From Rhodothermales bacterium (GTDB lineage: Bacteria; Bacteroidota; Rhodothermia; Rhodothermales; BA12): a DNA stretch of 64,000 bases. Numbering within the stretch: position 1 is the first letter of the stretch; each line of letters begins with the position of its first letter. The notes under the pieces were generated by a model. The model saw only the letters and a program-made list of their open reading frames with translations, made no database searches and had not been told where the DNA came from. The position numbers and the translations under genes are program-made. This document shows positions 1 through 42,450 of this stretch, piece by piece. The DNA is taken from NCBI GenBank assembly GCA_963841855.1, contig CAWJEJ010000001.1, forward strand, positions 1,042,789 to 1,106,788, read 5' to 3'.

Positions 1-192
1 GTAGTTCATGTCGAGCAGGACCACGTCGAAGCGGTTCTCGCGCATCAGCGTCGGCAAGCTCGCAGGCGAGGTGGCCGTCTGGACGGCGGCGACGTGTCCG
101 GTCAACAGTAGGCGGATGGCGGTGAGCACGTCTTCGTTATCGTCCACGACGAGGACGCGGACGGTGGAGAGATCGGAGGCAGAGACAGACAT
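1..192 (-). CDS. response regulator, N-terminal receiver (REC) domain; gene continues past the left edge
   Basis: The reverse complement of 1-192 reads MSVSASDLSTVRVLVVDDNEDVLTAIRLLLTGHVAAVQTATSPASLPTLMRENRFDVVLLDMNY (ATG = complement of 190-192). It has the acidic DD pair and the phospho-acceptor Asp in LLDMNY of CheY-like receivers. It is missing from the ORF track because the window edge truncates it. Confidence 0.7.
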   Translation of the reverse strand, partial: MSVSASDLSTVRVLVVDDNEDVLTAIRLLLTGHVAAVQTATSPASLPTLMRENRFDVVLLDMNY

Positions 193-348: not shown

Positions 349-383
349 GGAGATCGCCACGTCGCTGCGCTCCTCGCGATGAC
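349..383 (-). repeat. dispersed 35-nt repeat, D type (gtcatcgcgaggagcRcagcgacgtggcgatctcc)
   Basis: ggagatcgccacgtcgctgcgctcctcgcgatgac is the reverse complement of the 62349-62383 copy, with 1 mismatch. Confidence 0.7.
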
Positions 384-2438: not shown

Positions 2439-2466
2439 CTCCGACGCAGCATGCTGCGTCGCTACA
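2439..2466 (+). repeat. REP-like element, A type (perfect palindrome gacgcagcatgctgcgtc followed by gctaca)
   Basis: ctccgacgcagcatgctgcgtcgctaca is identical over 28 nt to 3339-3366. It ends 15 nt before ATG 2482. Confidence 0.8.
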
Positions 2467-2481
2467 ATACAACCCGAAACC

Positions 2482-3235
2482 ATGGAAACGCCCACGATCA
2501 CTCCGACTGCTCCGGCTGCTGTTAAAAACGGCGGCGGCACGCTCATCCAGACGCAGGACATGACCAAGGTGTACCGCACCGAATCGGTCGAGACGCAGGC
2601 GCTGGCGGGCGTCTCGCTCGGCGTCAACCGGGGCGCGTTCGTGGCGCTGATGGGGCCGTCCGGCTGCGGCAAGTCGACGCTGCTCAACATCTTGGGCATG
2701 CTCGATCAGCCGTCCAACGGCAAGTACCTGTTCGACGGGCAGGACATCGCGCAGGCCGGGGAGTCGCAGCGGGCCAAACTGCGGCGTGGACGCATCGGGT
2801 TCGTGTTTCAGAGCTTCAACCTGATCGACGATCTGACGGTCTACGAAAACGTCGAGTTGCCGCTGCTCTACCTCAAAACCGACAAGGCCGAGCGCAAGGC
2901 TAGGGTCGAAGCCGCCCTGGACCGCGTCGCGATGCTGCACCGTCGGAGCCACCACCCGCAGCAGCTATCGGGCGGTCAGCAGCAGCGTGTCGCCATTGCA
3001 CGCGCCGTCGTCGCCTCTCCCCCGCTCATTCTCGCTGACGAACCGACGGGTAACCTCGACTCCAAGAACGGCGCCGAGGTGATGAAGCTGCTCGTCGAAC
3101 TCAACGAGGCCGGGCACCACTATCGTGATGGTGACGCACTCGGCCATCGACGCCGAGTACGCGCACCGCGTCGTCAACCTGTTCGACGGGCGCATCGTGA
3201 GCGAGCACTTCGCCAACCAGACAGTCGCGGCGTGA
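2482..3235 (+). pseudogene. ABC transporter ATP-binding protein (MacB/LolD-type), interrupted by one frameshift
   Basis: Walker A GPSGCGKST, signature LSGGQQQRV and Walker B LILADEPT are all present. After ...ELNEAG the frame is lost at the G run 3112-3114. The next forward frame, entered at ggc 3113-3115 (one base into the original frame), reads [40 protein letters not shown] and stops at 3233-3235, which is the normal C-terminus of this family. Confidence 0.8.
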
Positions 3236-3338
3236 CCTCGCTGGCTGCGTTCAACCGCTCCCGCACCGACGGGGCATGCCGCGTCGCCCACGCGGACACC
3301 GCCCGCCTCCCTTAGCCTCCACGCTCTGGCGTGATTCT

Positions 3339-3366
3339 CTCCGACGCAGCATGCTGCGTCGCTACA
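3339..3366 (+). repeat. REP-like element, A type
   Basis: ctccgacgcagcatgctgcgtcgctaca. It ends 11 nt before the proposed GTG start at 3378. Confidence 0.8.
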
Positions 3367-3377
3367 TCTCTCTGATC

Positions 3378-5778
3378 GTGCACGCCATTCGCCTCGCTTT
3401 CCGCCGGTTGCGCCGGCATCCTGGGTTCACGCTGCTCAACGCGTCGGGACTGGCGATTGGGCTGGCGTGCGCGCTGCTGGCGCTGTTCTACATCCGCGAC
3501 GAGATACGCGTCGACCGCTTCCACGAGGATGCCGACCGGATCTACTCGGTCGTCATGACCGACACGCTGCTCGCGCCCGAGACGCCGTCGACGCCCTACC
3601 CGCTGGGGCTGGCGCTGGCGGATCAGGCCGAGGTGACGAGCGTGATGCGGCGCAGCAGCGGTTGGCCTACGCGGATGCGGATAGCAGGAGCGACAAGCGA
3701 AATCCGCCCGCGCGTGCTGATGACCGACGCGGGCTTCTTCGACTTCTTCTCGTTTCCCCTCGTCAGCGGATCGCCTCAGCCCCTCGCCGATCTGAGCGGA
3801 CTGGTGCTCACGCCCGAGACCGCGCAGATGCTGTTCGGCGATGCGAATGCGATGGGCCGCGTCGTCGAAGTATTCAAGCCGTGGCCGACTCCGACGTGGG
3901 TGCCGCTGACGGTGACGGCCATCGCCGCTCCGCCACCCGCGCACTCGACGATTGGGTTTGGTGCCGTCGCCCGCTTCGAGTCGTTGCGCGACGGCTACGA
4001 CGACCCGGACAGCTGGGGCATGAGCAGCTACCGCAGCTACGTCCGGCTCGCGCCCGAGCATCGACGGGGCCGCGTACGCTGCCGGACTTCCCAGCCGCAT
4101 CCAGGCCGTCGACCCCGTCGCCGATCACGTGGGGCGGTCGCCGGTTCGCCGCGCTGCCGATGACGGATTTCTACCTGTCGGGCATCGAGGAGAGCAGCAC
4201 GTTCACGGGCAAGGCAGGCTACATGAAGCTGTTCGGGGCGATTGCGCTCGTCATCCTGCTGATCGCGATTCTCAACTACGTCAACCTCGCCACGGCGAGC
4301 GGCATGCGGATGGCGCGCGAAGTCGGCGTGCGCAAGGCGGTCGGTTCGGGGCGCGGGCAGGTGGCGCGCGGGCTGCTCGTCGAGGCGCTCCTGCTCGTCG
4401 GGCTGAGCTTTGCGCTGAGCGTCGGGCTGGTGCTGCTGGCGACGCCTCTGGTCAACGCGTTCTTCGACAAGGGCATCGTGCTCGGCTGGGACGCGCTGCC
4501 GGTGTGGGCGGGCGCGTTCGGGCTGATGATCGGTGTCGGGCTGCTGGCGGGCGCGTATCCGGCCCTCGTGCTGTCGCGCTTCTCTCCGGCGCGCGTGCTC
4601 AAAAGCGGACCGCAGGGTGCCATCGGCGGGACGTGGCTACGCAGAGGACTGGTCGTGACGCAGTTCGCGGCGACGATTGGGCTGCTCGTCTTTACGGGCT
4701 TCGTCTTCCGCCAACTCGACCACGTCGAGAGCCGCTACCCGATGCCGGACGACAGCCGGCTCGCCGTCCTCTCGCTCGAGCGCGAGTGGGGCAAGCGATC
4801 GGCGACCGTCGAACAGGCGCTGGCCGACCTGCCCGGCGTGATCGGAACGGCGGCGTCGACGGGCGTTCCCGGACAGATCGGCAACCGCTACGGCTTCCTC
4901 CCCGACGGCCCGGACGCCGAGTTCGACATCATCGCCGGATTCTTCGGCGACCGCGACTTCGCCGACCTGCTCGGCATGCCGACCGCCCACGAATCGACCG
5001 ACCTCTCGGTCCCCGGCGCGCTCCGCCTGTTCGTCAACGAAGCGGCGATGCAGCGCTCGGCCCTCGACTGGTCGCCCGGCGTGATCTTCCCCGTCGGCGT
5101 GGTCGAAAACGGCGTCGACGGAAGCAAGTCGACCGAGCTGGCGGGCGTGCTGACGGACTTCCCCTACGAATCGCTCCGCGACCCGATTGCGCCGCTGTTC
5201 TACGCCGAAGCGCCCGACACGTCGCGCTTCCTCTACGTCGTGTCCCGAGTGGCGAGCGACAGCGTCGGCGCGTTTGGGGCCGCGCTTCCTGCCGTCTGGT
5301 CGCAGTTCAGCAGCAGCGCGCCCGAGGTCGAGTTCGTCGACGATTACGTGGCCGAGTTGTACGAAGCCGAGACCAAACTGGCGCAACTGGTGACGCTGCT
5401 CGCCATCGTCGGCCTTCTGGTGGCGTGCCTCGGCCTGTTCGGACTGGCGGCCCACGCGGCGGCGCAGAGGCGCAAGGAAATCAGCGTCCGCAAGGTGCTG
5501 GGCGCAGGCGTCGGCCGGGCTGATCGGTCGGTTGTCGCGCGAGTTCGCCCTGCTCGTCGGCGTGGCGTTCCTCGTCGCCGCGCCGGTCTCGTACGTGCTC
5601 GTATCGGACTGGCTCGACGGCTTCGTCGACCGGACGTACAGTGGGTCCGGGCGTGTTCGCGGGCGTGCTGGCGCTGGTGCTCGTGCTGGCGCTCGTGACC
5701 GTCAGCTACCACGCGTGGCAGGCGGCGACGCGCAACCCCGCCGACGTGCTGCGCGAGCGAATAAAATCGGTGGTCTAG
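3378..5778 (+). pseudogene. duplicated MacB/FtsX-type ABC permease P1, at least 5 frame disruptions
   Basis: The start is inferred as GTG 3378 (VHAIRLAFRRLRRHPGFTLLN) by alignment to P2 MHTLRIAV and P3 MHSIRLAL. The paralog-like sequence can be followed only by switching forward frames near 4059, 4129, 5510, 5640 and 5755. Both FtsX modules are present (NYVNLATASGMRMAREVGVRKAVGS and LGLFGLAAHAAAQRRKEISVRKVLGA). Confidence 0.75.
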
Positions 5779-5826
5779 CTGGTCGTCTGCGGCCTGTTAG
5801 GCTTGCGACGGGACGTCACCTTCTTA

Positions 5827-5856
5827 GGGCGACGAAGGCGTCGCCCCTACACCTCC
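5827..5856 (+). repeat. REP-like element, B type (ggcgac-N-gtcgcc hairpin + cctaca)
   Basis: gggcgacgaaggcgtcgcccctacacctcc. The CTACA ends 10 nt before ATG 5862. Confidence 0.75.
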
Positions 5857-5861
5857 TGATC

Positions 5862-8270
5862 ATGCACACGCTTCGCATCGCTGTTCGCCGGTTGGTTCGG
5901 CATCCTGGATTCACGCTCGCTCAACGCGTTCGGGTCTGGCCGTCGGGCTGGCGTGCGCGCTGCTGGCGCTGTTCTACATCCGCGACGAAACGCGCGTCGA
6001 CCGCTTCCACGCGATGCCGACCGATCCTCGCCGTCACACTGACCGACAGCACGCTGACGAATGGCGATACCTACCTGTCATATCCGGTCGCCGATGCGGT
6101 CGCCAATCTGCCGCAGGTCGAGCAGGCGATTCGGGTGACCGGGTCGCGAACGAGCCGGTTGCGGGTGCCGGGGAGCGATAGCGAGATCGAGAAGCGCCGT
6201 ACTGTTCACCGAGGCGGGCTTTTTCGAGATGTTCTCGTTTCCATTGTCGGCGGGCAATCCGTCCTCGGCACTGAGAGAGCCGAACGAGATCGTTCTGACG
6301 CCCAAGTCGGCGGCAGCGCTGTTCGGCGAGGCCGATCCGGTCGGGCAGACGGTCGAGTACTTCCGATCCGAGCTGGAACGGACCGGGCGAGTGGATTCCG
6401 CTGACCGTCACTGCCATCGCCCTGGCGCCGCCGCACCACTCGACGATCCAGTTCGAGTCGGTCGCCCGGTTCGAGGCGCGCAACGACGACACCTACGGCG
6501 ATCCGGACAGCTGGGGCAATCAGTGGCTCCAAACGTACGCGCGTCTCGTGCCCGGATCGGACGCTGCAGCGTTCGTGGCGGGCATGCCGGATCAGATGGC
6601 GAGCGCCGATCCCGAGCAACACCGACGACAGCTTTTGGGGCCAGCGTTACTACGTGCCCGTCCCCATCGCCGACGTGTACTTCTCGGTCGACCGGTATGG
6701 CAGCCAGTTCACTGGGCAAGCGGCGTTCATGCGACTTGTTCGGGCTGATCGCGCTGGCCGTCTTGATCATCGCTGTTCTCAACTACGTCAACCTCGCCAC
6801 GGCGCGCGGACTGCGGATGGCGCGCGAGGTCGGCGTGCGCAAAGCCGTCGGCGCCGGGCGCGGACAGGTGGCGCGTCAGACTGCTCGTCGAGGCGCTGCT
6901 GCTGGTGTCGCTCGCGTTCGTCGTCGCCGTCGGGATCGTGCTGCTGGCGCTGCCGCTGTTCAACACGTTCTTCGGCAAGAGAAGTCGTGCTGGGCTGGGA
7001 CGCGACTACCGGTCTGGGCGGGCGCGCTCGTCCTGATGCTCGACGTCGGGCTGCTGGCGGGCGCATATCCGGCCCTCGTGCTGTCGCGCTTCGACCCGGC
7101 GCGCGTGCTCAAAAGCGGACCGTCGGGTGCCATCGGCGGAACGTGGCTGCGCAGAGGACTTGTCGTGGCGCAGTTCGCGGCGACGATCGGGCTGCTCGTC
7201 TTCACGGCTTCGTCTTCCGGCAACTCGACTTCATCCAGAACAGCTACCAACTCCCCGACGACGCGCGGCTAGCCGTCCTGCGCACGCCCGACGAGTGGGG
7301 CAACGCGCACGCCAAACGATCAAAGCCGCGCTGGCCGATCTACCGGGCGTGCAAGGCGACCGCAGCGACGAGTGCCGTCCCGGGAAGGGTCGGGATGCGC
7401 TTCGGCATTACGCAGGAAGGCAAGGAGCCGCTGATGATGGCCGTCGTGTCGGCCGACACGCGATTACATGGACCTGATGAGTCTGCCGATGGAGCACGAC
7501 GCGCCCATATCCGGCTCGGATTCGCCGACGCGCGTCTACGCCAACGAGTCGCTGCTGCGAGCGATGGACAAAGAGTGGTCGCCGGAGCTCACGATCCCGG
7601 TCGGCCCCAACGCGTACGGGGGCATGTCGTCGGGCGAGGCGTCGCCGCTGGCGGGCGTGATGACCGACCTGCCGTACGAGTCGCTGCGCGAGCCGATCCA
7701 GCCGATGTTCATCGCCGAGATGCCGGACACGACCGATTTCTCGTACGTCGTCGCCAAAGTGGGCGAGGCGACCTGGAGGCGTTTCAGGCCGCGCTGCCGG
7801 GCGTCTGGTCTCAGTTCAGCGGCAAGGCGCTCGACGTGTCGTTCGTCGACGATTACGTCGCCAAGCTGTACGAGGGCGAGACCAAACTGGCCCAACTGGT
7901 GACGCTGCTGGCGTTCGTCGCCCTGCTGGTGGCGTGCCTGGGTCTGTTCGGACTGGCGGCGCACTCGGCGACGACCAAGCGCAAGGAGATCAGCGTGCGC
8001 AAGGTGCTCGGCGCGGGCGTGGCCGGGCTGATCGGTAGGCTGACGCGCGAGTTCGCGCTGCTCGTCGGCGTCGCGTTTTTGATCGCCGCTCCGGTCGCCT
8101 ACCTGCTCACGTCGCGCTGGCTCGAGGGCTTCGCCGATCGCACGCCGGTCGGTCCCGGCGTGTTCGCGCTCGTGCTGGGCGCGACGCTGCTGCTGGCGCT
8201 CGTGACAGTCAGCTGGCACGCGTGGCAGGCGGCGACGCGCAATCCCGCCGACGTGCTGCGCGACGAATAG
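5862..8270 (+). pseudogene. duplicated MacB/FtsX-type ABC permease P2, heavily frameshifted (about 13-15 frame switches by manual tracing)
   Basis: Starts MHTLRIAVRRLVRHPGFTL and ends ...NPADVLRDE at 8270. In between, the conserved sequence is spread over ORFs 5532-6404, 6229-7272, 6548-6748, 6654-8270, 7127-7477 and 7468-7902 in all three forward frames. By eye it is a close nucleotide match to P1 in blocks such as 7050-7240 versus 4541-4725. Confidence 0.75.
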
Positions 8271-8361
8271 GCGATTCCGTCCGCCCACGCACGGTCGGCT
8301 GTTCGGTGGCGGACGGTCGGCCGAGTCATGATTAGGCGACTGGGGCGCGGTTTCGAGGCGG

Positions 8362-8377
8362 CGGCACGGGCTTGGCG
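8362..8377 (+). promoter_or_regulatory. candidate sigma-54 -24/-12 promoter in the P3 leader
   Basis: CGGCACGGGCTTGGCG compared with TGGCACG-N4-TTGCW. GGCACG is present and the GG and GC dinucleotides are at the correct spacing; there is one mismatch in TTGC. It lies 85 nt upstream of ATG 8462. Confidence 0.3.
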
Positions 8378-8423
8378 CGGTGGTCGGGCGTCGGCTCGGT
8401 TTGCAGGGCTACTTCGACATCAG

Positions 8424-8456
8424 AGGCGACGCACGCGTCGCCCCTACATCACCTCC
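8424..8456 (+). repeat. REP-like element, B type
   Basis: aggcgacgcacgcgtcgcccctacatcacctcc. The CTACA ends 13 nt before ATG 8462. Confidence 0.75.
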
Positions 8457-8461
8457 CGTTC

Positions 8462-10788
8462 ATGCATTCGATTCGTTTGGCTCTTCGTCGCATTCGCCGC
8501 CGTCCGGGGTTCACGCTGCTTACGGCGTCGGGGCTGGCGCTTGGGCTGGCGTGCGCGCTGCTGATCGGTAGTTACCTCGCGGGCGAGTGGCGCTACGACA
8601 CGCACTACATCGGACTCGGATCAACTGGTGCGCGTGGCGACGGTCTTCGACGAGGAGGTGGTGACGGTGAGCGCTTCGGCGGTCGCTCCAACGCTGATCG
8701 CGGACGTGCCGACGGTCACGCACGCCGTCCGCATGTTCGAGGCGTCGGCATTTGGGACGCCCTTCGTCGAGGCCAACGGGCGCGGGTTCGAGGAGGCCAA
8801 CGAGGTCTGGTTCGCCGACGAAGGCTGGGCGGACGTGATCGGCACACCGCTCGTCGCTGGAGCGGCCAGACTGATCGACCCGGCCACAGTGCTCCTATCT
8901 GAGCACACGGCTGAGCGGTACTTCGGATCGGCGCAAGCCGCCGTCGGGCAGACGATCACGATGGACGCGCGGCGCGTGTTGACGGTAACAGGCGTCTTCG
9001 CCGATGCACCCGAAACATCGCACATTCGCCCGCGCATCGTGGCGTCGTGGTATAGGATGAGCCAGATCGAGCCGTCGTGGACGCGCGTCAACTACGCCAC
9101 TTACGCGCGCCTGACCGACCGTGCCGACCTCGCATCGGCCCAAGCCGCCCTCAACCAGATCGCCGACGCGCTAGGCGAAGACGAACGCGGATTCAGCCAA
9201 CTACTATTCCAGCCCGTCGACCAGATCCACGCGACCGAGAGCGGCTCGCGTCTGCGGTACCTGATGCTGTCGTTGTGTCGTACTCGTCATCGCCGCCGTC
9301 AACTTCGTCAACCTGACGACGGCGCGGCAGGCCGAGCGAACGTCGGAAGTCGGCGTGCGCAAGGCCGTGGGCGCACCTCGGAGCCTGTTGATCGGACAGT
9401 TTTTGGGGGAGTCGTTGGCGATTACGAGTGTGGCGGGCATCGTCGGCGTGGGGCTGACGGCGCTGGGGCTTCCGTTCGCGGAAGCCATTGCGGGGCGCCA
9501 CGTGCTGCCGCCGGCCGAATGGGGCTGGCTCGTGGGGCTGGCGTACATAGGGACGACCCTCGTCGTCGGCTTGCTGGCGGGTCTCTATCCGGCGTTGGCG
9601 CTGTCGAGCGGATCGTCGCTCCAGGCGCTGCGCGGACGCATCGTCGGGCCGAGAGGTGGGGTGCAGTTGCGCCGGATCCTCGTGACGGCGCAGTTAGCGA
9701 TCTCGCTGGCGTTCGTGGCCGGAGCGCTGATCGTTCAGCAGCAGCTCAGCTTCTTAAGAACCGCCGACCTGGGCTTCGATCGCGCCGCAACCGTGACGGT
9801 CCCGCTGGGCGGATGGGAAGGGCAGAAGTTTGAGCGCGTCCGGGCCGAGCTAGGCGACGTACCCGGCGTCTTGGGCATCGCCGCGCTGACGAGTCTCCCC
9901 GGCGAACACCATGGCGGGTACAGCGCCACGTGGCCCGGACGCGAGGGCGACGAGTTGGCGCTGCGCGCGTCCGTCGCAAGTAGGGAAGCAATCGACGCGT
10001 TGGGGCTGCGTATCGTGGCGGGCGAAAGTCTGCCTGCTGTCGCTACCCCAGACTCCGTCGGGGCGTTTCGCTTCGTCGTCAACGAGGAGGTCGCGCGTGC
10101 CGTTGCCGGGTCGAACGAGGCGGCCATTGGCCATCCGTTCGTGATGAACGGGCGCGAGGGCGAGATCGTGGGCGTCGTCCAAGACTTCCACTACGCATCG
10201 CTGCACGAGGCCGTCGGCCCGTTCGTGCTCTTCAGCCAAGCCACGCCCTGGTACTCCGAACTCGTCGTGCGCCTGGCTCCCAACGCGCCCGGCGACGTGC
10301 TCGACCAACTCGCCGGAAGATGGAACGCAGCCGAGACGGGGCGCCCCTTCGTCTACCACTTCCTCGACGAGCAATTGGGCGATCTCTACGCCGCAGATCG
10401 TCGGCTGGGCAGCCTGGCCGGGCTGGCCGCGCTGGTCACCATTCTCGTCGCCTGCCTGGGGCTGTTCGGACTGGCCGCATTCTCGGTCGCCCGGCGGCGC
10501 AAGGAGATCGGCGTGCGTAAGGCGCTGGGCGCGGCGGCGGTCGGCATCGTCGGGTTGGTATCGCGCGAGTTTGCCGTTTTGGTCGGGCTGGGGTTTGTGA
10601 TCGGCGCTCCGGTCGCGTGGGCGTTCGGCGTGTGGTGGAAAGAGGGGTTTGCGTATTCGGCGGGCGGAGCGGGGTGGGCGATTGTGGCGTCGGGCCTGCT
10701 CGTGCTGGCGCTGGCGCTGCTGACCGTCAGCTACCACGCCTGGCGCGCCGCGACGCTCGACCCGGCCCTCGTACTCCGCGACGAGTAG
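8462..10788 (+). pseudogene. duplicated MacB/FtsX-type ABC permease P3, two frameshifts
   Basis: Starts MHSIRLALRRIRRRPGFTLLTASGLALGLACALL. The frame changes near 8609 (into the ORF 8628-9833 frame) and near 9280 (into the ORF 9355-10788 frame, which restores VVLVIAAVNFVNLTTARQAERTSEVGVRKAVGA). The C-terminal module LGLFGLAAFSVARRRKEIGVRKALGA is present, and the protein ends LVLRDE. Confidence 0.75.
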
Positions 10789-10800
10789 CGACGGCCTCTC

Positions 10801-10834
10801 AACCATGACATGTCTCTCTAGACACGTCATGTTT
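10801..10834. promoter_or_regulatory. AT-rich palindrome (catgacatgtc family) 13 nt after the P3 stop; possible terminator or operator
   Basis: aaccatgacatgtct-ctct-agacacgtcatgttt followed by t. It is related to the perfect palindrome at 53371-53403. Confidence 0.4.
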
Positions 10835-10979
10835 TACTTCCGCACATCGTCCAATCGTCCGCCGCCGCACGCACGCTGTCCGGCAGCGGACACGGCACAG
10901 CGTTCTGGATGCTAAAAACGTCGCATGGGCGCGAGGCACGCGTTTGGCCTAGCCGGAGGGCACCAACACGGACACGCTC

Positions 10980-13388: not shown

Positions 13389-13396
13389 TGACACCC

Positions 13397-13422
13397 GGAC
13401 GAATCGCAGATTCGCTCCTACG
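13397..13422 (+). repeat. REP-like hairpin + CTAC
   Basis: ggacgaatcgcagattcgctcctacg has stem cgaatc/gattcg. The CTAC ends 16 nt before ATG 13438. Confidence 0.5.
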
Positions 13423-13437
13423 ACACTACCCTGGATC

Positions 13438-15795: not shown

Positions 15796-15967
15796 CATCG
15801 GCCTCTTGCATCTGCCAGGTATTGGAGACCTGATAGGTTTCTACTCCGCCCATCCGTTCACCGGCGCACGGACGCTGTTCGCTGGCGGACAGGCTGGCAC
15901 GCGATTCCGCTGGCTACGGCGCGGTTCGCGCGTCGGCACAGCGTTGGTAAGGTGCGACGTGTCCGGT

Positions 15968-15992
15968 CGACGCGGCGTGCTGCGTCGCTACG
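15968..15992 (+). repeat. REP-like element, A type (degenerate)
   Basis: cgacgcggcgtgctgcgtcgctacg. The CTAC ends 21 nt before ATG 16013. Confidence 0.65.
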
Positions 15993-16012
15993 TTTCTGAT
16001 CTGCTGATTGAT

Positions 16013-18400
16013 ATGATTGCTTCCTACTTCCGCGTCGCCCTTCGCACGCTGCGCCGCCATCGGGTGCACACGACGCTCACCGTTCTGGGACTGGCGCTGG
16101 GCATGGCGGTGTGCCTGCTCGTCGGCGCGTTTGCGTGGCATCTGGCGTCGTTCGACCAGTTTCACGCGCAGTCGGACCGGATCGTGCGGATCCTGACGGA
16201 CCGTTTGGAGCGGGACGGCGAGACGACGGCGCTGGGTGCCACGCCCGCTCCGCTGGGAGCCGAGATCCAGGCCGACGTGCCGGGCGTCGAAGCCGTCGTG
16301 CGCATCGGTGAACTGACGACCTCGGCGGTTCACGACGGACGCGCGACCCCGCTAACCGGACTGTTCGCCGATCCGACGTTTTTCGACGTGTTCGACTTCG
16401 CGACGACGCAGGGCGACGGACGCCAGGCGCTCGCCACGCCCGGAAACCTGCTGCTGACAGCCGATGCCGCCGAGCGCATCTTCGGCTCGGCCGATCCTAT
16501 CGGCCAGACGGTCACGCTCGAAGGTCGGTCGGGTGGCGCGTTCGTCGTCGCCGGGCTGCTGGCCGATCCGCCGGGTCCGTCGCACCTGCGCTTCGAAGCG
16601 CTGGCGTCGTTCGGCAGCGTCGCAGCGAACGACGCGTCGGACTGGGGCAACACGTGGACGTTCGCGACCTATCTGCTGCTCGACCAGCCGCAAACCGCTG
16701 AGCGCGTCGCGGCTGCGCTCCCTGCCCTAGCCGCGCGCACCTACGACACGCCGGCGCGCACCACGTTTCGTGTGCAGCCGCTACGCGACATCGCGTTGGG
16801 GCCTTATCTGGGCAACGAGGTGTCGAGTTACAGCGTCCCAGCCGTCGTCATCTACTTCCTCTCAGCGCTCGGACTCGTCGTCATGCTGGCTGCTGGATTC
16901 AACTACGTCAGCTTGACCATTGCCAGATCGCTCGAACGCGCTCGCGAGATCGGCGCGCGCAAGACGCTGGGCGCCGGACGTAGGCAGGTAACGGCACAAC
17001 TGCTCGCCGAGTCGGCTCTGGCCTCTGTGCTGGCGACGGTCGTGGCCGCCTTGCTGCTCGTGCTGCTCGTTCCAGGCTTCAACTCGCTGGCGTTCGTCCA
17101 ACTCTTCGACGTGCAGATCCAGATGCGCCACCTGCTCGACCCCAGGCTGATCGGCCTGTTCGCGCTGTTTGGCGTGGGCGTGGGCGTCATCGCCGGACTC
17201 TACCCCGCGCTGCGACTGGCGCGTGCAACTCCGCTGGCAGCGCTGCGTGGCGGATCGACCAGTGGGCGCGCGTCCGGACGGCGGCTGCGCTTCTCGCTCG
17301 TCGGCGCTCAGCTGGGCGTCGCGCTGCTCTTCGTGCTGACGACCGCTCTGCTCGGCGCGCAGTTTCGCCACCTCGCCCAGGCCGAGTATGGATTCGACCA
17401 GAGAGACGTGCTCACCGTCGATTTGCAGGGCCAGTCGTTCGACGTGTTTCGCTCAGAGGTGGAGGCGCAGCCCGGCGTGGCGGTCGTGGCAGGCACGTCC
17501 ATGCTCCCGGTTTCCGGCTTGACTTCGGGCGCACAACTGCGACGCGTGGGCAGCGATTCGACAGCCGCCGACGTGTACGCCGCGACGCCGGAGTTCTCTC
17601 GAGCGCTGAACCTTGAGTTCGTCGCCGGGCAACCGCTGGGAGCCGGTGGGCGCGCTGCGGCTGGAACCGTCGTGCTCAACCAGACGGCTACGCGCCGGCT
17701 GGGCTTCGACGCACCCGGCGACGCCATCGGAGCCGCTCTGACGCTCACCGTAGGAGCAGGCAGACAGGTCGAAGTCGTCGGCGTCGTGCGAGACTACCAA
17801 TACGACTTGCCGACAGAAGGCATCGGTTCTATGGTGCTGCATACCGCTCCCGAGAGGATCCGCTTCGCCGTCGTCCGCACCCAACCGGGCGCGCTGTCTC
17901 AGGTCGAGGCGGACGTGGCATCGCTATGGAAGCGACTCGATCCGGTCCACCCGGTTGCGATGCAGCGGTTCGAGGCGCAGATCTCGGACGGCCCGATTCG
18001 CCACATGCTGGCCGCGTTCAACCGAATGCTGACGGTCGTGTCGCTGCTGGCGCTGGTGATTTCGTGCCTGGGGCTGCTCGGCATGGCGGCGTATCACGTC
18101 GAGAGTAGGGTCAAGGAAGTCGGCGTGCGCAAGGTGCTGGGCGCGAGCCGTGCCGCCGTCGTGTGGCTGCTCTCGCGCGAGTTCGTCGCGCTGACGCTGG
18201 TCGTGGTCTTGATCGCCGTGCCCCTGACGCTGGTGCTGGCCGGAGCGTGGCTCGACGTGTTCGCCGTCCGCACCCAGATCGACCCGCTACTCGTAATCGG
18301 CTGCGTGGGGCTGACGGCAGCCGCGGCGCTAGGCGTGGTCGTCTCGCAGACGCTGCGGGCGGCTTCGGCGGATCCGGTGGCTTCGCTGCGGGCGGAGTAG
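16013..18400 (+). CDS. duplicated MacB/FtsX-type ABC permease P6
   Basis: Internal ATG of ORF 15734-18400, chosen so that the N-terminus MIASYFRVALRTLRRHRVHTTLTVLGLALGMAVCLL aligns with the paralogs. Modules FNYVSLTIARSLERAREIGARKTLGA and LGLLGMAAYHVESRVKEVGVRKVLGA. Confidence 0.85.
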   Translation: MIASYFRVALRTLRRHRVHTTLTVLGLALGMAVCLLVGAFAWHLASFDQFHAQSDRIVRILTDRLERDGETTALGATPAPLGAEIQADVPGVEAVVRIGELTTSAVHDGRATPLTGLFADPTFFDVFDFATTQGDGRQALATPGNLLLTADAAERIFGSADPIGQTVTLEGRSGGAFVVAGLLADPPGPSHLRFEALASFGSVAANDASDWGNTWTFATYLLLDQPQTAERVAAALPALAARTYDTPARTTFRVQPLRDIALGPYLGNEVSSYSVPAVVIYFLSALGLVVMLAAGFNYVSLTIARSLERAREIGARKTLGAGRRQVTAQLLAESALASVLATVVAALLLVLLVPGFNSLAFVQLFDVQIQMRHLLDPRLIGLFALFGVGVGVIAGLYPALRLARATPLAALRGGSTSGRASGRRLRFSLVGAQLGVALLFVLTTALLGAQFRHLAQAEYGFDQRDVLTVDLQGQSFDVFRSEVEAQPGVAVVAGTSMLPVSGLTSGAQLRRVGSDSTAADVYAATPEFSRALNLEFVAGQPLGAGGRAAAGTVVLNQTATRRLGFDAPGDAIGAALTLTVGAGRQVEVVGVVRDYQYDLPTEGIGSMVLHTAPERIRFAVVRTQPGALSQVEADVASLWKRLDPVHPVAMQRFEAQISDGPIRHMLAAFNRMLTVVSLLALVISCLGLLGMAAYHVESRVKEVGVRKVLGASRAAVVWLLSREFVALTLVVVLIAVPLTLVLAGAWLDVFAVRTQIDPLLVIGCVGLTAAAALGVVVSQTLRAASADPVASLRAE

Positions 18401-18518
18401 CTCCGTCCACCGGCGCACGGGCGCTGTTCGATGCCGAACACTCCGACACGCGTTTCAGGCCGCTGAGCCGCGATTCGCGCGTCGGCATAGCGTTGGCGAT
18501 AGAGTTGAGCGCTTACCT

Positions 18519-18545
18519 CGACGACGCCCACGCTGCGTCGCTACG
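18519..18545 (+). repeat. REP-like element, A type (degenerate)
   Basis: cgacgacgcccacgctgcgtcgctacg. The CTAC ends 20 nt before ATG 18565. Confidence 0.55.
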
Positions 18546-18564
18546 TCTCTGTATCACTGCCGAT

Positions 18565-20982
18565 ATGATCGCTCACGACCTGAAACTCACCCTCCGTAGT
18601 CTGGCCCGTCGCAAGGGCTATGCGGCGCTTCACGTGCTTGGGCTGGCGGCTGGGCTGGCGGCGTGCCTCGTCGTGCTGCTCTACGCGGCGCACGAGTTCA
18701 CCTACGACCGCTTCCACCCCGACGCCGGGCAGATCTACTCGGCCCAGCAGGCCGTTCGGTTTGGCGGCATCGCCCACACGATCGAGAGCGCGCCCAATGA
18801 GGCGTTCGACCTCATCTCGCAGGGCGTGGCGGGCGTCGAGTCGGCGATGCGGACGGCGCGCAAAGGCGGAGCGCTCCGCGTGCCGGATGGCGACCCGCTG
18901 TCCATCGACCGCCTGCTCCAGGTCGACCCGGCGTTCTTCGACTTTTTCGGCTTCGGGCTGACGCGCGGAAACTCGGCCCAGGTGCTCGCCGACCCCGGCA
19001 GCATCGTCCTCACCCAGTCGACGGCGCGCAGGCTGTTCGGCGATCTGGACCCGGTCGGCCGAACCGTCGAGTTCTTGGAGCGCGGCTACATGGACAAAGA
19101 GGCGGGTGTGTCGCTGACGGTGAGCGGCGTCTCGGCCGATCCGCCCGGCAACTCGACGCTCCGCTTCGACGCGCTAACGCGGCTCGTGCCTCAACCCTCG
19201 GCGCCGTCCAACCCGTTCTCTGGCACGCCGACGTATCTGCGCCTGGCCGCCAACGCCGACACCGCCGCCGTCCTGTCGACGCTGCGCAGCGTGAGTGCGA
19301 GCGAACCCGGCAGCGGCCCCGAAACCACGCTGGGCATGGTTCGCCTCGTCGACGCCCATCTCGCTCCCGAGCCTACTCCCGAGTTCCTCCCAGACGCCCC
19401 GTCGCCGCTGCGCTACGTCTACCTGTTCGGCACGATCGCGCTCGTACTGCTGGTGATCGCGGTCATCAACTACGTCAACCTGTCGACGGCCTACGCGAGT
19501 CAGCGCCGGGCCGAAGTCGGCGTGCGCAAGACGCTGGGCGCGTCGCGGTCCGAGTTGGGGCGGCTGTTCTGGCTCGAAGCCCTGCTGCTGGCCGCGTGCG
19601 CGGGTGTCATCGCGCTCGGCCTGTCGGTCGGAGCGCCGTGGCTCTTCCGGTCGTTCTTCGGCTTCGAACTGGGCGTGACACCGTTCTCTCACCCGGCGAT
19701 TGCGCTGGGCCTGCTGGGCGTCGCGCTGCTGACCGGAGTCTTGGCGGGCGCCTATCCCGCCGTCTACCTCGCACGCCAACGGCCCGTCGTGGCGCTCAAA
19801 GGCGAGCGCACGCGCGGCGGCGGACTCCGGCTGCGGCAGAGCCTGGTCGTCGTGCAGTTTGCCCTCGCCGTAGCGATGCTGTCGGCGACGTGGATCGTGG
19901 GCGATCAGCTCCAGCTCGGCCGCGACCTGCTGATGGGCAGCGGCAGCCAGACCATGGTCCTTAACGTGGGATCGGAGTCGGCCGCCGACATCACCCGACT
20001 GGCCGACCAGATGCGGCAGGCCGACGGCGTCGAGCAAGTCGTCCGGTCCAGTACGGCGCCGGGCGCGTTTGGCTTCTCGTCGGCGACGACGATCAGCCAG
20101 TGGAACGGCGGAGAACCGGCCGAAGGCGAGGCGTCGATCATGCTGCAGACCATCTCGGCGGACGCGGGCTACGCGTCGTTCTACGGCATCGACCTAGTCG
20201 CAGGCCGTGCGCCGCGCGAGGGCGAGGCGAGCGTCGCCGTCGTGACCGAAACCACTCTGCGCGACTTCCAACTCGGCGAGGACGCCCAAGCCGTACTCGG
20301 ACGCACCGTCCACCTGTTCGGGCGGCCGCACGAAGTGATCGGAGTGGCGAGCGACTTCTACCTGCGCTCCATCGAAAGCAGCCCCGGCGCGACCGTGCTG
20401 ATGCCCTTCCCCGCCGACGCGATGGAAGCGCGGTCGCTCTACGCCCCAACCGCCATATCCGCCAGGATCGCAACGGGACGCGCATCGGAAGCGATCGACG
20501 CGGTTCAGTCGGCGTGGCGTGAGGTCTTGCCGGACGCACCATTCGCCTACAAGTGGCTCGACGACGTGTTCGCTCAGTCGTACGAAGCCGAGCGCCGCAC
20601 TCAAGCCGTCTTCGGATTCGCGGCTGCTCTGGCGCTCGCGCTCGCGTGCATGGGCCTATTCGGACTGGCCGCGTTTGCGGCGATGCAGCGGCGCAAAGAA
20701 ATCGGCGTGCGCAAAGTGCTGGGCGCGGGCGTGGCGCGGCTCGTCGGCCTGATGACGCGCGATTTTGCCCTGCTCGTGCTGGTCGGCTTCGCGCTCGCCG
20801 TGCCCGCCGCGTACGTGCTGATGGGCCGCTGGCTCGAAGGCTTCGCCGAACGCGCGCCTCTGCGTCCAGGCGTCTTTCTCGCATCGGGCGTGCTCGTCCT
20901 GGTCATCGCGCTGGCGACGGTCGGCTACCACGCGCTCCGGGCAGCGACGGTCAACCCCGCCGACGTGCTGCGCGACGAATGA
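18565..20982 (+). CDS. duplicated MacB/FtsX-type ABC permease P7
   Basis: Internal ATG of ORF 18163-20982 (MIAHDLKLTLRSLARRKGYAALHVLGLAAGLAACLVV). Modules INYVNLSTAYASQRRAEVGVRKTLGA and MGLFGLAAFAAMQRRKEIGVRKVLGA. Ends VLRDE. Confidence 0.85.
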   Translation: MIAHDLKLTLRSLARRKGYAALHVLGLAAGLAACLVVLLYAAHEFTYDRFHPDAGQIYSAQQAVRFGGIAHTIESAPNEAFDLISQGVAGVESAMRTARKGGALRVPDGDPLSIDRLLQVDPAFFDFFGFGLTRGNSAQVLADPGSIVLTQSTARRLFGDLDPVGRTVEFLERGYMDKEAGVSLTVSGVSADPPGNSTLRFDALTRLVPQPSAPSNPFSGTPTYLRLAANADTAAVLSTLRSVSASEPGSGPETTLGMVRLVDAHLAPEPTPEFLPDAPSPLRYVYLFGTIALVLLVIAVINYVNLSTAYASQRRAEVGVRKTLGASRSELGRLFWLEALLLAACAGVIALGLSVGAPWLFRSFFGFELGVTPFSHPAIALGLLGVALLTGVLAGAYPAVYLARQRPVVALKGERTRGGGLRLRQSLVVVQFALAVAMLSATWIVGDQLQLGRDLLMGSGSQTMVLNVGSESAADITRLADQMRQADGVEQVVRSSTAPGAFGFSSATTISQWNGGEPAEGEASIMLQTISADAGYASFYGIDLVAGRAPREGEASVAVVTETTLRDFQLGEDAQAVLGRTVHLFGRPHEVIGVASDFYLRSIESSPGATVLMPFPADAMEARSLYAPTAISARIATGRASEAIDAVQSAWREVLPDAPFAYKWLDDVFAQSYEAERRTQAVFGFAAALALALACMGLFGLAAFAAMQRRKEIGVRKVLGAGVARLVGLMTRDFALLVLVGFALAVPAAYVLMGRWLEGFAERAPLRPGVFLASGVLVLVIALATVGYHALRAATVNPADVLRDE

Positions 20983-21010
20983 TCTGCGCTCGACATCACG
21001 ACGCACTCTC

Positions 21011-21040
21011 TAGGCGACTCGGCGAGTCGCCCCTACACAC
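21011..21040 (+). repeat. REP-like element, B type
   Basis: taggcgactcggcgagtcgcccctacacac. The CTAC ends 7 nt before ATG 21044. Confidence 0.75.
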
Positions 21041-21043
21041 TTT

Positions 21044-23440
21044 TTGGATATGATCCGCTACGACCTGCTCCTCGCCTTTCGCTCGCTGCGGCGGCGCCCT
21101 GGATTCACAGCGCTGAACGCCATCGGCCTGAGCATCGGTCTGGCGTGTGCTCTGATCGCGTTTGCTCTCGTGCAGCACGAACTGCGTTTCGATGCGCACC
21201 ACGCGCAGGCCGAACGGACATACCGCGTCGGGGCGCTGTGGCCGAACTGGAACGAGCAGGGCCCCTCGTATCAGGAGCAGACGCCGACGGCTCTGGTACC
21301 CATACTGCGAGATGGCCTGCCCGGTGTCGGGCGCGTCGTTGAGCTTCGGGTGGGCTATGGCGAGCGATCCGTCCAGGTGGGCGAGACGTTTTTCAGTCAG
21401 GGCGGAAGGGCCTTCGTCGATCCGGATTTCTTCGACGTGTTCGACTACGCTGCTCTGTCGGGGAGCGTCGACCGACTCACGCTTCCCAACACCGTCGCCC
21501 TGACCCAAACGAACGCGCAGCGCCTGTTCGGAGACGCGGAAGCTGTCGGCCAGTCGCTCCGCTACGGCCCTGATCGGTCGTTCGAAGTGGTGGCGGTCTT
21601 GGCCGATCCACCCGCTCAGACGCACCTGCCGTTCTCGTTCTTTGTCTCACTGGCGACGCTCTCGCCTTCCTACGACGAGTGGGGGTTCTCCGACGGCCAC
21701 TCGTCATACGTCGTACTCGAACCGGGCGCGTCTGCGGCAGCCGTCGAGCGGCAACTGGGTGTCATCCAGAAGACGCACCAGACTCCCGAGGAGCAGGCCA
21801 GCCAGCAGTTCGTGCTGCAGCCGCTGCGCTCGATCCACACCGACGCGCGCTACGGCGCCTATCCGGGCGGCTACGTGATGAACCCCCAGTATCTGTGGGG
21901 TTTGGGGCTGATCGGCGTGCTGATCCTGCTGTCGGCGGCCGTCAACTATGTCAACCTCGCGACGGCGCAGGGAGCGGCTCGCGCGAGGGAAATCGGCGTC
22001 CGCAAAGCCATCGGAAGCACGCGCGGTCAGCTGGCGATGCGGCTGCTGGCCGAGGCCGTCCTACTATCGGCGGGCGCTGCTGCTCTGGGCTGGGCCGCTG
22101 CGTTGGCGCTGCTTCCCCTCGTGGCCGACCTCTTCAAGATCGACGTCACGCGGGCGATCCTGCTGAGCCCCCAGGGGCTGTCGTTTGTGGCGGGTGTCAC
22201 GTTCGTCGTCGCCGGACTCGCAGGGTTCTATCCTTCCATCGTGCTCTCGCGCTACGAACCGGCGACCGTTCTGCGGCGGCTGGGATCGTCGGGCCAGGTC
22301 GGCGCGCGCGGATTGCGGCGCGGGCTCGTCGTCTTCCAGTTTGCGGCGGCGCTGGCGTTGCTGCTCGGGGCGCTGGCGGTGTTGCAGCAGATGCGCTACG
22401 TCGAGCACAAAGATCTGGGTTTCGAGAGTCAGGCCCGAGTCGTCGTTCCCACACCGGACGACGAAGCGGGTCGCGCTCGCTTTCGCGAGGCTCTCGAGCG
22501 GGCTCCGGCCGTGCAGTCGGTCACGTACGCGATGGGCGGGCCGACCAAGCCCGGCCGCCTAAGCCACCGGTACGTGTGGGGCGACGACCTGAGCGGCTCA
22601 GGCGAGTCGCTGCTCACCGTCCCCATCGACGCGGAGTATACCGAAACGTTCGGAATCAACCTCCTAGCTGGACGCACCCTCCGACCCGAGGACGAAATCC
22701 TCCCCCACAGCCGAGCGATCCTCGTCAACCAATCGATGGTCCAGCGGATGGGATTTGGCAGCGCCGACGAAGCGATCGGCGCGACGCTGTACACCCACGA
22801 CGAGCAGACTCCGCTCGAAGTCGTCGGGGTGACCGAAGATTTCCACCACGCGTCGCTGCGCAGTCAGATCGCTCCGGCCGTCCTGCTCTACTGGCCGCGC
22901 TGGACGCACCAGGCCGGTGTCGCACTTGCGCCAGACGATGTAGCGGCTGGACTGGCTCAAACCCAGGACGCTTTCGCCCAGGTCTTTCCCGAAGCGCACT
23001 TCCGCTACACGTTCGTCGACGACTACCTGGGCACGCTCTACGAACCCGAGCGCATGATAGCGAGCGCTTTTCAGATGTTCACGCTGCTTGCGCTGTTGGT
23101 CGCCTGTCTGGGCTTGTTCGGACTCGCGGCGCTCACGGCGGCGCAGCGATCCAAGGAGGTCGGCGTTCGGAAAGCACTCGGTGCGAGCGTAGCCTCTATC
23201 GTAGCGTTGCTGTCGCGCGAGGTCGTCGGGCTAGCCGCAATCGCATCCGTCGTGAGCATCGTGCCGGTCCTGCTCCTCGTGAACCGCTGGCTCGACGGCT
23301 TCGCCTATCACGTCTCGCCCGGCGTCGGAACGGGATTGGCGGCGCTGACTCTAGTGCTGATCGTCGCGCTGGCGACCGTGGGATGGCACGCGCTGAGCGC
23401 CGCTCGCGTCAGTCCCGTCGATGTGCTACGCGGCGAATGA
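21044..23440 (+). CDS. duplicated MacB/FtsX-type ABC permease P8
   Basis: Intact 798-aa ORF starting MDMIRYDLLLAFRSLRRRPGFTALN. Modules VNYVNLATAQGAARAREIGVRKAIGS and LGLFGLAALTAAQRSKEVGVRKALGA. Confidence 0.85.
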   Translation: MDMIRYDLLLAFRSLRRRPGFTALNAIGLSIGLACALIAFALVQHELRFDAHHAQAERTYRVGALWPNWNEQGPSYQEQTPTALVPILRDGLPGVGRVVELRVGYGERSVQVGETFFSQGGRAFVDPDFFDVFDYAALSGSVDRLTLPNTVALTQTNAQRLFGDAEAVGQSLRYGPDRSFEVVAVLADPPAQTHLPFSFFVSLATLSPSYDEWGFSDGHSSYVVLEPGASAAAVERQLGVIQKTHQTPEEQASQQFVLQPLRSIHTDARYGAYPGGYVMNPQYLWGLGLIGVLILLSAAVNYVNLATAQGAARAREIGVRKAIGSTRGQLAMRLLAEAVLLSAGAAALGWAAALALLPLVADLFKIDVTRAILLSPQGLSFVAGVTFVVAGLAGFYPSIVLSRYEPATVLRRLGSSGQVGARGLRRGLVVFQFAAALALLLGALAVLQQMRYVEHKDLGFESQARVVVPTPDDEAGRARFREALERAPAVQSVTYAMGGPTKPGRLSHRYVWGDDLSGSGESLLTVPIDAEYTETFGINLLAGRTLRPEDEILPHSRAILVNQSMVQRMGFGSADEAIGATLYTHDEQTPLEVVGVTEDFHHASLRSQIAPAVLLYWPRWTHQAGVALAPDDVAAGLAQTQDAFAQVFPEAHFRYTFVDDYLGTLYEPERMIASAFQMFTLLALLVACLGLFGLAALTAAQRSKEVGVRKALGASVASIVALLSREVVGLAAIASVVSIVPVLLLVNRWLDGFAYHVSPGVGTGLAALTLVLIVALATVGWHALSAARVSPVDVLRGE

Positions 23441-23458
23441 CGCGCTGCTTTCTCACTC

Positions 23459-23486
23459 CTCCGACGCAGCGTGCTGCGCCGCTACA
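23459..23486 (+). repeat. REP-like element, A type
   Basis: ctccgacgcagcgtgctgcgccgctaca has 2 mismatches to the 2439 and 3339 copies. The CTAC ends 12 nt before ATG 23498. Confidence 0.75.
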
Positions 23487-25879: not shown

Positions 25880-25937
25880 AACTGTGTACCATGTGGGCGG
25901 TCCGCAGAGTAACGTTCAGTAACACTCATACACGGTT

Positions 25938-35007: not shown

Positions 35008-35124
35008 TCCTGGCAGTTCATCAACGATAGATAACCCGTCGCATCCCGCGCATTCCGTACCGACGGGGCATGCCCCGCCGCTAGCACGGCGTCGCACATC
35101 CAGCCAAGCCAGTCACACCGCATC

Positions 35125-42357: not shown

Positions 42358-42370
42358 GGGATGTGGGAAT

Positions 42371-42396: not shown

Positions 42397-42450
42397 AGGA
42401 ATGGAGATAATGCGTAGCGCCGTGATACCTAACGGCGAGAGGCCAACCGA

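Follow-up and report, generated by a model that had tools for sequence, protein, structure and literature searches.

Repetitive extragenic palindromic (REP) elements rank among the most abundant repeats of bacteria, and their spread and host role are open questions. In members of the GTAG-tagged REP superfamily, a short palindrome is bordered on one side by an unpaired GTAG (PMC3733652, PMC2817692). The SMAG elements of Stenotrophomonas and the REPs of Pseudomonas are of this kind and are tied to REP-associated tyrosine transposases, i.e. RAYT/TnpA-REP (PMC3733652, PMC2817692, PMC8266576). Such families usually have more than 100 copies in a genome, along with a RAYT (Y1 HuH transposase) gene that inverted REP copies flank. 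The uni-directional REPs known so far keep close to the 3' end of the upstream gene, their distance from the downstream one being variable, and head-to-tail dimers are under-represented in the families described (PMC3733652). We analysed a 64,000-nt stretch of DNA (the window) from a Rhodothermales bacterium of the lineage BA12 (assembly GCA_963841855.1, contig CAWJEJ010000001.1, positions 1,042,789 to 1,106,788 of the forward strand), which carries about 20 short hairpins of REP-like build. The known picture is one of 3'-proximal hairpins in alternating orientation, whereas here they are sense-oriented, arranged head to tail and placed at a short, fixed distance from start codons, in a host without Shine-Dalgarno (SD) sequences. 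What is new about them is their position and orientation, the repeat itself being of a known kind. Structure, dispersal and turnover, as read from about 230 kb of the clade (the 64-kb window and about 170 kb of relatives), give good support to the view that the elements form a lineage-specific family of GTAG-tagged REP-type palindromes. The nearest public relatives are uncultured Rhodothermales, and the GC content of the window is 65.8%.

The hairpins are GC-rich, occur in 13 spacers of the window and are all built on one scaffold (S-G-N-C-G, 10 nt, C-G-N-C-S), the outer stem of which is common to every type. Stems have 6-10 bp, loops 0-7 nt, and the energies range from -7 to -15 kcal/mol. Fifteen hairpins carry a tail, which is CTAC directly 3' of the hairpin in 14 of them and TTAC in one; degenerate tails (CCCAC, CTAG) are found elsewhere. 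The tail is unpaired after the 3' arm and reads as a GTAG ahead of the hairpin on the opposite strand. An earlier note on this DNA had flagged a series of such motifs and likened their architecture to that of REP elements. Every element it listed exists at its place, the flagged motifs are confirmed as real copies of a REP-type palindromic repeat, i.e. a GC-rich hairpin followed by a CTAC tail, and the architecture is that of the GTAG-tagged REPs. Type A reads CGACGC..GCGTCG + CTAC and type B GGGCGAC..GTCGCCC + CTAC. The type A copies at 2442 and 3342 share one identical 28-mer, and the type B copies at 21013 and 263-286 have the same sequence.

To assess the conservation of the structure, 18 distinct hairpins of 20 nt, taken from the window and its relatives, were aligned without gaps. 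Positions 2, 4, 5, 16, 17 and 19 are invariant, and the inner stem and the loop vary freely. Of all stem cells 95% are paired, and every shift of register destroys the pairing. Compensatory changes are seen at five of the eight stem pairs, with 38 cells changed on both sides as against 10.9 +/- 2.6 in shuffles. In a comparison with shuffled sequence, the pattern SGNCG-N10-CGNCS-YTAC has 11 matches in the window versus 0.33 +/- 0.53 in 100 shuffles, and a looser, generic definition of a hairpin plus CTAC gives 12 matches versus 2.75 +/- 1.8 expected. Within genes, scaffold matches stay at chance level. A covariance model, run over the window with filters off, recovers the same set as the other searches and finds no copy with an antisense tail. 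No part of the window matches Rfam 15 at the gathering threshold.

These properties agree with those of REPs: the palindrome falls within 20-40 bp and forms a stem-loop with a stem of 6-13 bp and a short loop, an unpaired GTAG (or degenerate GTRG/GYAG) stands at one of its ends, and the repeat is dispersed over unrelated, mostly extragenic loci. The arrangement that is typical of REPs without defining them, i.e. a position near the upstream 3' end and head-head or tail-tail dimers, is absent from the window and present in a related metagenome-assembled genome (MAG; loci L009 and L014). Since the elements are palindromic, GC-rich and located between genes, they might also be taken for intercistronic terminators or attenuators, or for DNA operators of a dimeric regulator, and E. 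coli bacterial interspersed mosaic elements (BIMEs) can attenuate transcription according to work cited in PMC6006769. We find this reading highly improbable. The hairpin is followed by CTAC[AG] and a leader of mixed C, T and A with no T/U tract, whereas other places in the window do have true T-tract terminators (41545-41583, 50544-50574); a terminator scan picks none of the elements, and an identity as intrinsic terminators was rejected on these grounds. The stem sequences moreover differ widely, only the structure and the tail being common, which speaks against a single sequence-specific DNA-binding protein. A reading of CTACAAT as a promoter was likewise rejected, since a likeness to a -10 box is confined to the 2462 copy and a sigma-70 scan was negative.

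It is conspicuous that all tagged copies of the window are intergenic with the tail on the coding strand, i.e. sense to the gene that they face (15/15). The distance from the tail to the start codon, taken for the gene-nearest module, is 16, 12, 11, 14, 17, 21, 20, 13, 12, 14 and 11 nt for an ABC ATPase, the permeases P1, P2, P3, P5, P6, P7, P8 and P9, fliQ and fabD, respectively. The gap of 7-21 nt that had been claimed thereby narrows to 11-21 nt, and the exceptional spacing of a response-regulator copy, 70 nt from its start codon, was borne out. In contrast to the narrow downstream distance, 8 to 172 nt separate the upstream stop codon from the hairpin. If placement were uniform within those spacers, the joint probability of such distances would be about 2e-9. 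Where a spacer holds several modules, as four spacers of the window do, they are arranged head to tail.

The plus-strand series begins with the type A hairpin CGACGCAGCATGCTGCGTCG + CTAC at 2442-2465, before the ATPase ATG (2482), with a folding energy of -13.2 kcal/mol and a z score of -4.5. The ATPase-P1 spacer holds two head-to-tail modules, a variant CGACGGGGCATGCCGCGTCG with the degenerate tail CCCAC (3267-3291) and the second 2442-type copy (3342-3365), which precedes the P1 GTG (3378). Type B copies follow at 5827-5850 (GGGCGACGAAGGCGTCGCCC + CTAC; P2 ATG 5862) and 8425-8447 (GGCGACGCACGCGTCGCC + CCTAC; P3 ATG 8462). The hairpin GGACGAATCGCAGATTCGCTCC before the P5 ATG (13397-13420; ATG 13438) is the weak one of the set, with -7.9 kcal/mol, a CTAC that overlaps the stem and a covariance-model E of about 5. 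Type A copies with a CTACG tail lie at 15968-15991 (with a G.U wobble; P6 ATG 16013) and at 18522-18544 (with a shortened stem; P7 ATG 18565), and the latter has an orthologue in L015. P8 (ATG 21050) is preceded by type B GGCGACTCGGCGAGTCGCC + CCTAC at 21013-21036, and P9 (ATG 23498) by a type A copy with one A.C mismatch and CTAC at 23462-23485, which is kept in the orthologous L004. Before P10 only a decayed type B remnant is left (25895-25919), at a site that is intact in L004 (GGTCGACTCACGGAGTCGCCC + TTAC). Further downstream, the spacer between an eleventh permease (P11) and its ATPase (ATPase2) contains the variant CGACGGGGCATGCCCCGCCG with the tail CTAG (35061-35084), 94 nt before the start codon, and an untagged type C hairpin GCCGTTATACATAACGGC (35131-35148), 30 nt before the ATPase2 ATG (35179). 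An untagged scaffold hairpin CGGCGCAGCGTGCGGCGCCG lies in the dnaN-motB spacer (50616-50635). The three fliP-fliQ modules are CGTCGCGATGTATCGCGACG + CTAC (62423-62446), GGCGAGAAGAATCTCGCC + GCTAC (62476-62498) and a third with a decayed 5' arm and an intact 3' arm GCTGCGACG + CTAC (62521-62544), next to the fliQ ATG (62559).

On the minus strand, the response-regulator copy is of type B with a CCTAC tail (263-286; ATG 192). The fabD-fabG spacer has two modules, CGCCGTTAGGTATCACGGCG + CTAC (42414-42437) and an untagged type C hairpin CGCCGTTATACATAACGGCG (42372-42391), the second 14 nt before the fabG ATG (42357), and the fabH-fabD spacer has type B GGGCGACGCACGCGCCGCCC + TTAC (43401-43424) ahead of the fabD ATG (43389). 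The copies between fabH, fabD and fabG (43424->43401; 42437->42414, 42391->42372) had been overlooked in the earlier note, as had the variants at 3267-3291, 35061-35084, 35131-35148 and 50616-50635 and the remnant before P10.

Tandem duplication comes to mind as a source of this regularity, i.e. one ancestral permease leader hairpin copied by the array, with chance doing the rest. The P5-P6 and P6-P7 spacers are in fact homologous over about 160 nt, so that their two copies represent one event; the leaders of P2 and P3 are alike and these two copies are probably co-duplicates too; and 9 of the 15 tagged copies lie within the one paralogous array. Nevertheless, sense copies close to the start also precede genes that are not paralogous (the ABC ATPase, fabD, fabG and fliQ in the window, the L005 and L010 genes in relatives), and elements also stand before the response regulator and, in relatives, before a nitrilase-family gene and others. 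As had been argued before, co-duplication cannot account for all of the copies. P8 and P9, which are close paralogues and neighbours, differ in hairpin type, and identical hairpins stand in unrelated flanks, before unrelated genes (2442 and 3342; 21013 and 286). When the obvious co-duplicates are collapsed, 11 independent spacers remain and the orientation is still 11:0 in favour of sense (binomial p ~0.001). Duplication with chance is therefore very unlikely as the whole explanation, and the non-paralogous copies largely refute it.

Replication does not explain the orientation either. Relative to dnaA/dnaN, the minus-strand copies (263-286 and 42-43 kb) share one side with the plus-strand copies at 2-24 kb, and the other side has plus-strand copies too (62 kb). 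With both orientations on one side, orientation tracks transcription and not the direction of replication, which rules out a lagging-strand bias of the IS200/IS605 kind; GC skew is uninformative at the scale of the window. The elements sit at junctions inside operons, where roughly one in two co-directional junctions of more than 40 nt carries one, and the probable first genes P4, recJ, plsX, dnaA and fliP have none.

The central codon of the palindrome is often an ATG or GTG in frame with the gene, as are ATG 3276 and ATG 3351 for P1, GTG 15977 for P6 and GTG 23471 for P9. As a correction to the earlier note, the ATG at 2451 in the middle of the 2442 copy does not share the frame of the ATPase start (2482). 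Gene callers can be misled into 5'-extended reading frames in this way, as had been suspected: in L026 (12265-12310), the public call of the P1 orthologue starts 45 nt ahead of the homologous ATG, at a GTG just before a type B element, and the called frame takes in the element.

Dispersal was examined with the type A 24-mer, which stands at seven unrelated loci of MFD03250.bin.1.109, a MAG of the Rhodothermales, and also occurs in a further MAG of that order. These eight Rhodothermales copies, seven of them from the one related MAG, form a sample that is blind to context. Half of them (4/8; L004, L005, L010 and L015) are sense and lie 10-21 nt from a start codon, and two of these four are orthologous to copies in the window. 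In L005, a spacer between divergent genes, two copies face outward and lie 10 and 20 nt from the respective start codons, the one at 20 nt being degenerate. Overall, a third to a half of the unbiased copies are start-proximal and sense, a tendency greatly in excess of the few percent that chance would give.

Turnover is evident in the relatives at 83-95% identity, where orthologous spacers keep a hairpin and tail near the start codon while the hairpin type changes. Upstream of P1 there is a type A hairpin in the window, a type B hairpin in L026 and none in L027. The first hairpin of the fabD-fabG spacer is CGCCGTTAGG... in the window versus CGTCGCAGCGTGCTGCGACG in L023/L024, with conserved flanks and CTACG tail, and the fabH-fabD hairpin differs from those of relatives by paired changes in the inner stem. 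The three fliP-fliQ modules of the window compare with two in L031, whose FliP is 95% identical, and L032 (91%) has none. In L026 the regulator copy has kept its hairpin and has TGCA for a tail. The replacement of one hairpin type by another at the same site, together with the changes in module number, suggests copy-paste or gene conversion.

Such observations also suit the main rival explanation, in which the elements are selfish or neutral REPs without any host function and owe their position to a preference in insertion or replacement, which by itself would yield copies that are sense and close to the start: new copies would land by a motif of the pyrimidine-rich leader, or would overwrite older REPs by gene conversion. 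Hairpin types do swap at fixed sites, copies that are identical, and thus recent, already stand near a start codon (2442 and 3342 in the window; in the relative, L004 and L010), CTC(C) precedes many type A copies, copies decay without obvious consequence, and the stems show no sense-specific excess of G.U pairs. We consider this rival possible, if doubtful. No clean pair of an empty and a filled site was found that would define the target, and other identical copies of the relative are not start-proximal (L008, L009, L013, L014), so that targeting is not strict. Upstream of P1, the hairpin and tail are kept at the same distance in L026 although the flanks of the spacer can no longer be aligned, which hints at retention by selection. 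We note that the CCTCC 5' flank was considered as a part of the element itself; it occurs at many start-proximal copies and is missing from L005, L008, L009, L013 and L014, which identifies it as pyrimidine-rich leader context and not as part of the repeat.

The leaders in which the elements sit are peculiar in composition. In 88 genes from the window, L023, L025, L026 and L027, G amounts to 0.19 and C to 0.40-0.43 at positions -20 to -1, as compared with a G content of about 0.3 further upstream, and no Shine-Dalgarno or GGAGG-type motif was found in the start regions of these genes. These start regions, C-rich and G-poor, bear out the earlier suggestion that the genome lacks SD sequences, and they match what has been described as 'aberrant' logos, SD-less and Chlorobi-like, in Rhodothermus and Salinibacter of the Rhodothermaceae (PMC3155529). 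The leaders often contain CCTCC, i.e. the anti-SD sequence itself and not its complement. The hairpin is present as a self-contained stem-loop in the predicted folds of four leaders (ATPase, P1, P2 and P8), with the tail and leader unpaired up to the start codon; the P1 start is covered by weak downstream pairing. The P9 and fabD leaders fold like shuffled sequence. The elements probably act as self-contained RNA hairpins. The CTAC tail is free of G, and the reverse orientation would put GTAG into the leader. The base that follows the tail depends on context: CTACA or TTACA is found in 14 of 16 start-proximal copies and CTACG in 12 of 14 others (window and L004-L031; Fisher p = 1.3e-4, or 6e-4 with orthologues collapsed).

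The account that we favour, with a probability of about one half, is a joint one: a REP family has been spread and homogenised, has in part been co-duplicated, and is retained at the upstream edge of G-poor, SD-less leaders, where it would serve as a boundary at the RNA level. A REP-associated Y1 transposase, REP-to-REP gene conversion or both would spread and homogenise the hairpins. Tandem duplication of the permease would have carried the 5' hairpin along and multiplied copies in direct orientation, as is seen for P6/P7 and as may hold for the rest of the array. To judge from composition and turnover, the last 20 nt or so before the start, C-rich and G-poor, presumably must stay unpaired. 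A compact hairpin with a G-free, unpaired tail would then be tolerated, or even of use, at the upstream border of this unpaired zone and retained there across species. In the mRNA such a hairpin could act as a structural boundary and a nuclease barrier, shielding the initiation region from upstream pairing and protecting the ends of processed cistrons. REP-to-REP replacement would keep old sites filled with young hairpins, as in the type swaps. Co-duplicated copies, type swaps and the tolerance filter together would produce the unusual placement. We infer the RNA-level role from sequence patterns.

Several observations weigh against this joint account. The earlier note had made it a strict rule that the elements are 5'-proximal and always face the start codon, and the rule that holds for 15/15 copies in the window is broken in relatives. 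The L013 copy is sense but stop-proximal, the L008 copy sits between convergent genes, the L014 copy has the antisense orientation, with its GTAG providing the upstream gene's TAG stop, the L009 copy is one half of a tail-to-tail dimer, and the fliN-fliO spacer of L031 holds an antisense type B copy. A sizeable share of the copies in relatives, in other words, behave like ordinary REPs, and the perfect record of the window owes something to one paralogous array, so that the bias may be overstated. The decayed start-proximal copies (before P10, the third fliQ module, the tails lost in L026) imply that selection, if there is any, is weak. Stem mismatches, counted by inspection, are 3 G.U versus 3 A.C, i.e. 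there is no sense-strand RNA signature. Finally, a search of six-frame translations of the window and of loci of its relatives with an HuH...Y regular expression found no RAYT, which is uninformative as RAYTs are usually single-copy.

A stronger version of the RNA-level idea is that domestication has turned the REP family of this SD-less lineage into a module for cistron starts, in which hairpin-CUACA, 11-21 nt upstream of the start codon, would mark and protect the 5' edge of the initiation region in internal cistrons, or would be a processing site that yields mRNAs with short leaders. On the sequence patterns at hand we regard this as unlikely; if true, it would mean that the orientation and position of REPs were selected at the RNA level and are not a by-product of transposition. 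Closely related is the proposal that hairpin-CUACA was exapted as a signal of cistron starts, i.e. as a processing site, a 5'-end stabiliser or an aid to (re-)initiation by ribosomes that ignore SD sequences. The narrow distance of 11-21 nt to the start across unrelated genes and species would fit such a signal, as would the CTACA variant of the tail, specific to start-proximal copies, the head-to-tail, all-sense arrangement that is under-represented among ordinary REPs (PMC3733652), and the presence of elements at internal cistrons, most operon-leading genes having none. We nevertheless think it quite improbable: about half of the co-directional junctions of the window have no element, several copies are decaying, and the orthologous operons of distant relatives work without elements. 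None was found in those operons of distant Rhodothermales (L028-L030, including Rubrivirga sp. S365; HlyD 55-61% identical), which shows that the elements are not a general initiation signal of the group.

The locus offers a natural test of whether the placement of REPs is set by selection at the RNA level or by targeting of the transposase. It is equally a natural test of how structured elements coexist with the unstructured, G-poor leaders needed for initiation of the Bacteroidota type.

The CGACGCAGCATGCTGCGTCG palindrome, flanked by GTAG and CTAC, was also seen in MAGs of Chloroflexi, Fibrobacterota and Bacillota and in a metagenome contig of 33% GC. These occurrences (L006, L016, L018-L022) are often at the apex of far longer, locus-specific inverted repeats. 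They are far beyond chance, and horizontal spread of a REP/transposase system is the sole explanation that we can offer. A scan of metagenomes with the 24-mer returned only six short contigs, mostly double-tagged palindromes of other phyla, and a scan of viral contigs with the same 24-mer found none.

As to the genes of the window, the response regulator occupies 1-192 (-), a gene for an HlyD adaptor 993-2309 and the ABC ATPase 2482 to about 3234 (+). The ten tandem MacB/FtsX-type permease paralogues P1-P10 extend over 3378-28283 (+). A yceD-rpmF-plsX-fabH-fabD-fabG operon lies at 41611-46719 (-). The window also contains recJ, a gene for an S8 protease, dnaA and dnaN, and flagellar genes including fliP, fliQ and fliR. 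Frameshifts split the ABC ATPase (at about 3120) and P1-P3 (3378-10788), and P4-P10 are intact. These frameshifts could reflect errors of long-read assembly or pseudogenisation, and split gene calls occur likewise at the related MAG loci L026, L030 and L031.

The REP family is not the only repeat in this DNA. A second family, ...TCGCGAGGAGCGCAGCGACGTGGCGATCTCC..., has 4 matches versus 0.29 expected, and its sites are at 349-366 (-), 62366-62383 (+), 2317-2405, 49225-49242 (-) and 52103-52120 (+) as well as in L010 and in the fliP-fliQ spacer of L031. An inverted pair of this repeat fills 2317-2405, directly upstream of a type A hairpin, and the order of long palindrome, type A hairpin and start codon recurs before an unrelated gene in L010. 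Two long, AT-containing palindromes (10804-10831 and 53371-53403) have CATGACATGTC...GACATGTCATG in common and may be the operator of a shared regulator; one of them is upstream of P4, the sole gene of the array with a long spacer and no REP. Further palindromic insertions, e.g. GGATTCCTGCCTGCGACACGCGTGTC...GCAGGAAGG and TGCTGCCTACGACACGCGTGTCGCAGGCAGCA, are found at 44489-44810, 49125-49156, 63725-63744 and in L004 (2050-2100), and because of such inserts the plsX-fabH spacer of the window is about 235 nt longer than in L023/L024. In L028 (Rubrivirga sp. S365; 74% GC), where REP hairpins are absent, the orthologous operon has CCCCGCCCC-type motifs all along its length, right behind stop codons and ahead of start codons.

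A stretch of about 110 nt upstream of plsX is conserved in four genomes (window ~45830-45950 on the minus strand, in the rpmF-plsX spacer; L023 7608-7752; L024 3290-3431; L025 1765-1944) and contains a long-range hairpin CCGCCGCGTGCAGCG...CGCTGCGCGCGGCG. In this it is unlike the REP spacers, which change fast. Nothing in Rfam matches it, and from the sequence it may be a leader or regulatory RNA. The yceD-dnaA spacer (46720-47377) has a perfect DnaA box at 47297-47305 and a box with one mismatch at 47077-47085. It is likely to be oriC (47.0-47.3 kb), which the boxes support weakly as their count is not above chance.

How the elements of the window stand among known systems can be summarised by four comparisons. 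Integron attC sites serve as an analogy only: they too are palindromes defined by structure and variable in sequence, with short conserved ends, placed in one orientation between genes of the same direction. However, attC sites have 57-141 bp and RYYYAAC/GTTRRRY boxes and belong to cassettes beside an integrase, whereas the present elements are 24 nt long, lack R''/R' boxes and an integrase, and are flanked by core operons (fab, fli); an identity as attC was rejected.

Hairpins of the ompA type are gene-specific, stabilising structures at the very 5' end of primary transcripts. In the predicted folds, the present elements resemble them in forming a stable hairpin shortly upstream of an initiation region whose start is single-stranded. 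In contrast to the ompA type, they make up a repeated family within polycistronic spacers.

E. coli REP/BIME elements of the malE-malF type are intercistronic stabilisers of mRNA and modulators of translation, and Liang et al. in 2015, as cited in PMC8266576, reportedly described such effects on mRNA and translation. The effects concern the upstream gene, i.e. protection of its 3' end, or stalling of ribosomes if fewer than 15 nt separate the REP from the stop codon. In the window, too, the hairpins lie between cistrons inside operons, and by analogy a block to exonucleases and an effect on the flanking cistrons might be expected. The difference is that the fixed relation is to the downstream start codon, in a host without SD-dependent initiation.

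The closest likeness is to the GTAG-tagged REPs themselves, with which the present elements share a GC-rich palindrome of 20-25 nt with a stem of 6-10 bp, a short loop and often a central CATG. Several stem subfamilies per genome, an extragenic and dispersed location and clusters with a variable number of modules are further common traits, as are, in the related MAG, the tail-to-tail dimer and the TAG stop supplied by GTAG, the latter being classic REP behaviour (PMC3733652). Unlike the described GTAG REPs, the elements of the window form head-to-tail multimers in which the last module lies 11-21 nt from the downstream start codon and the tail is sense in 15/15 cases.

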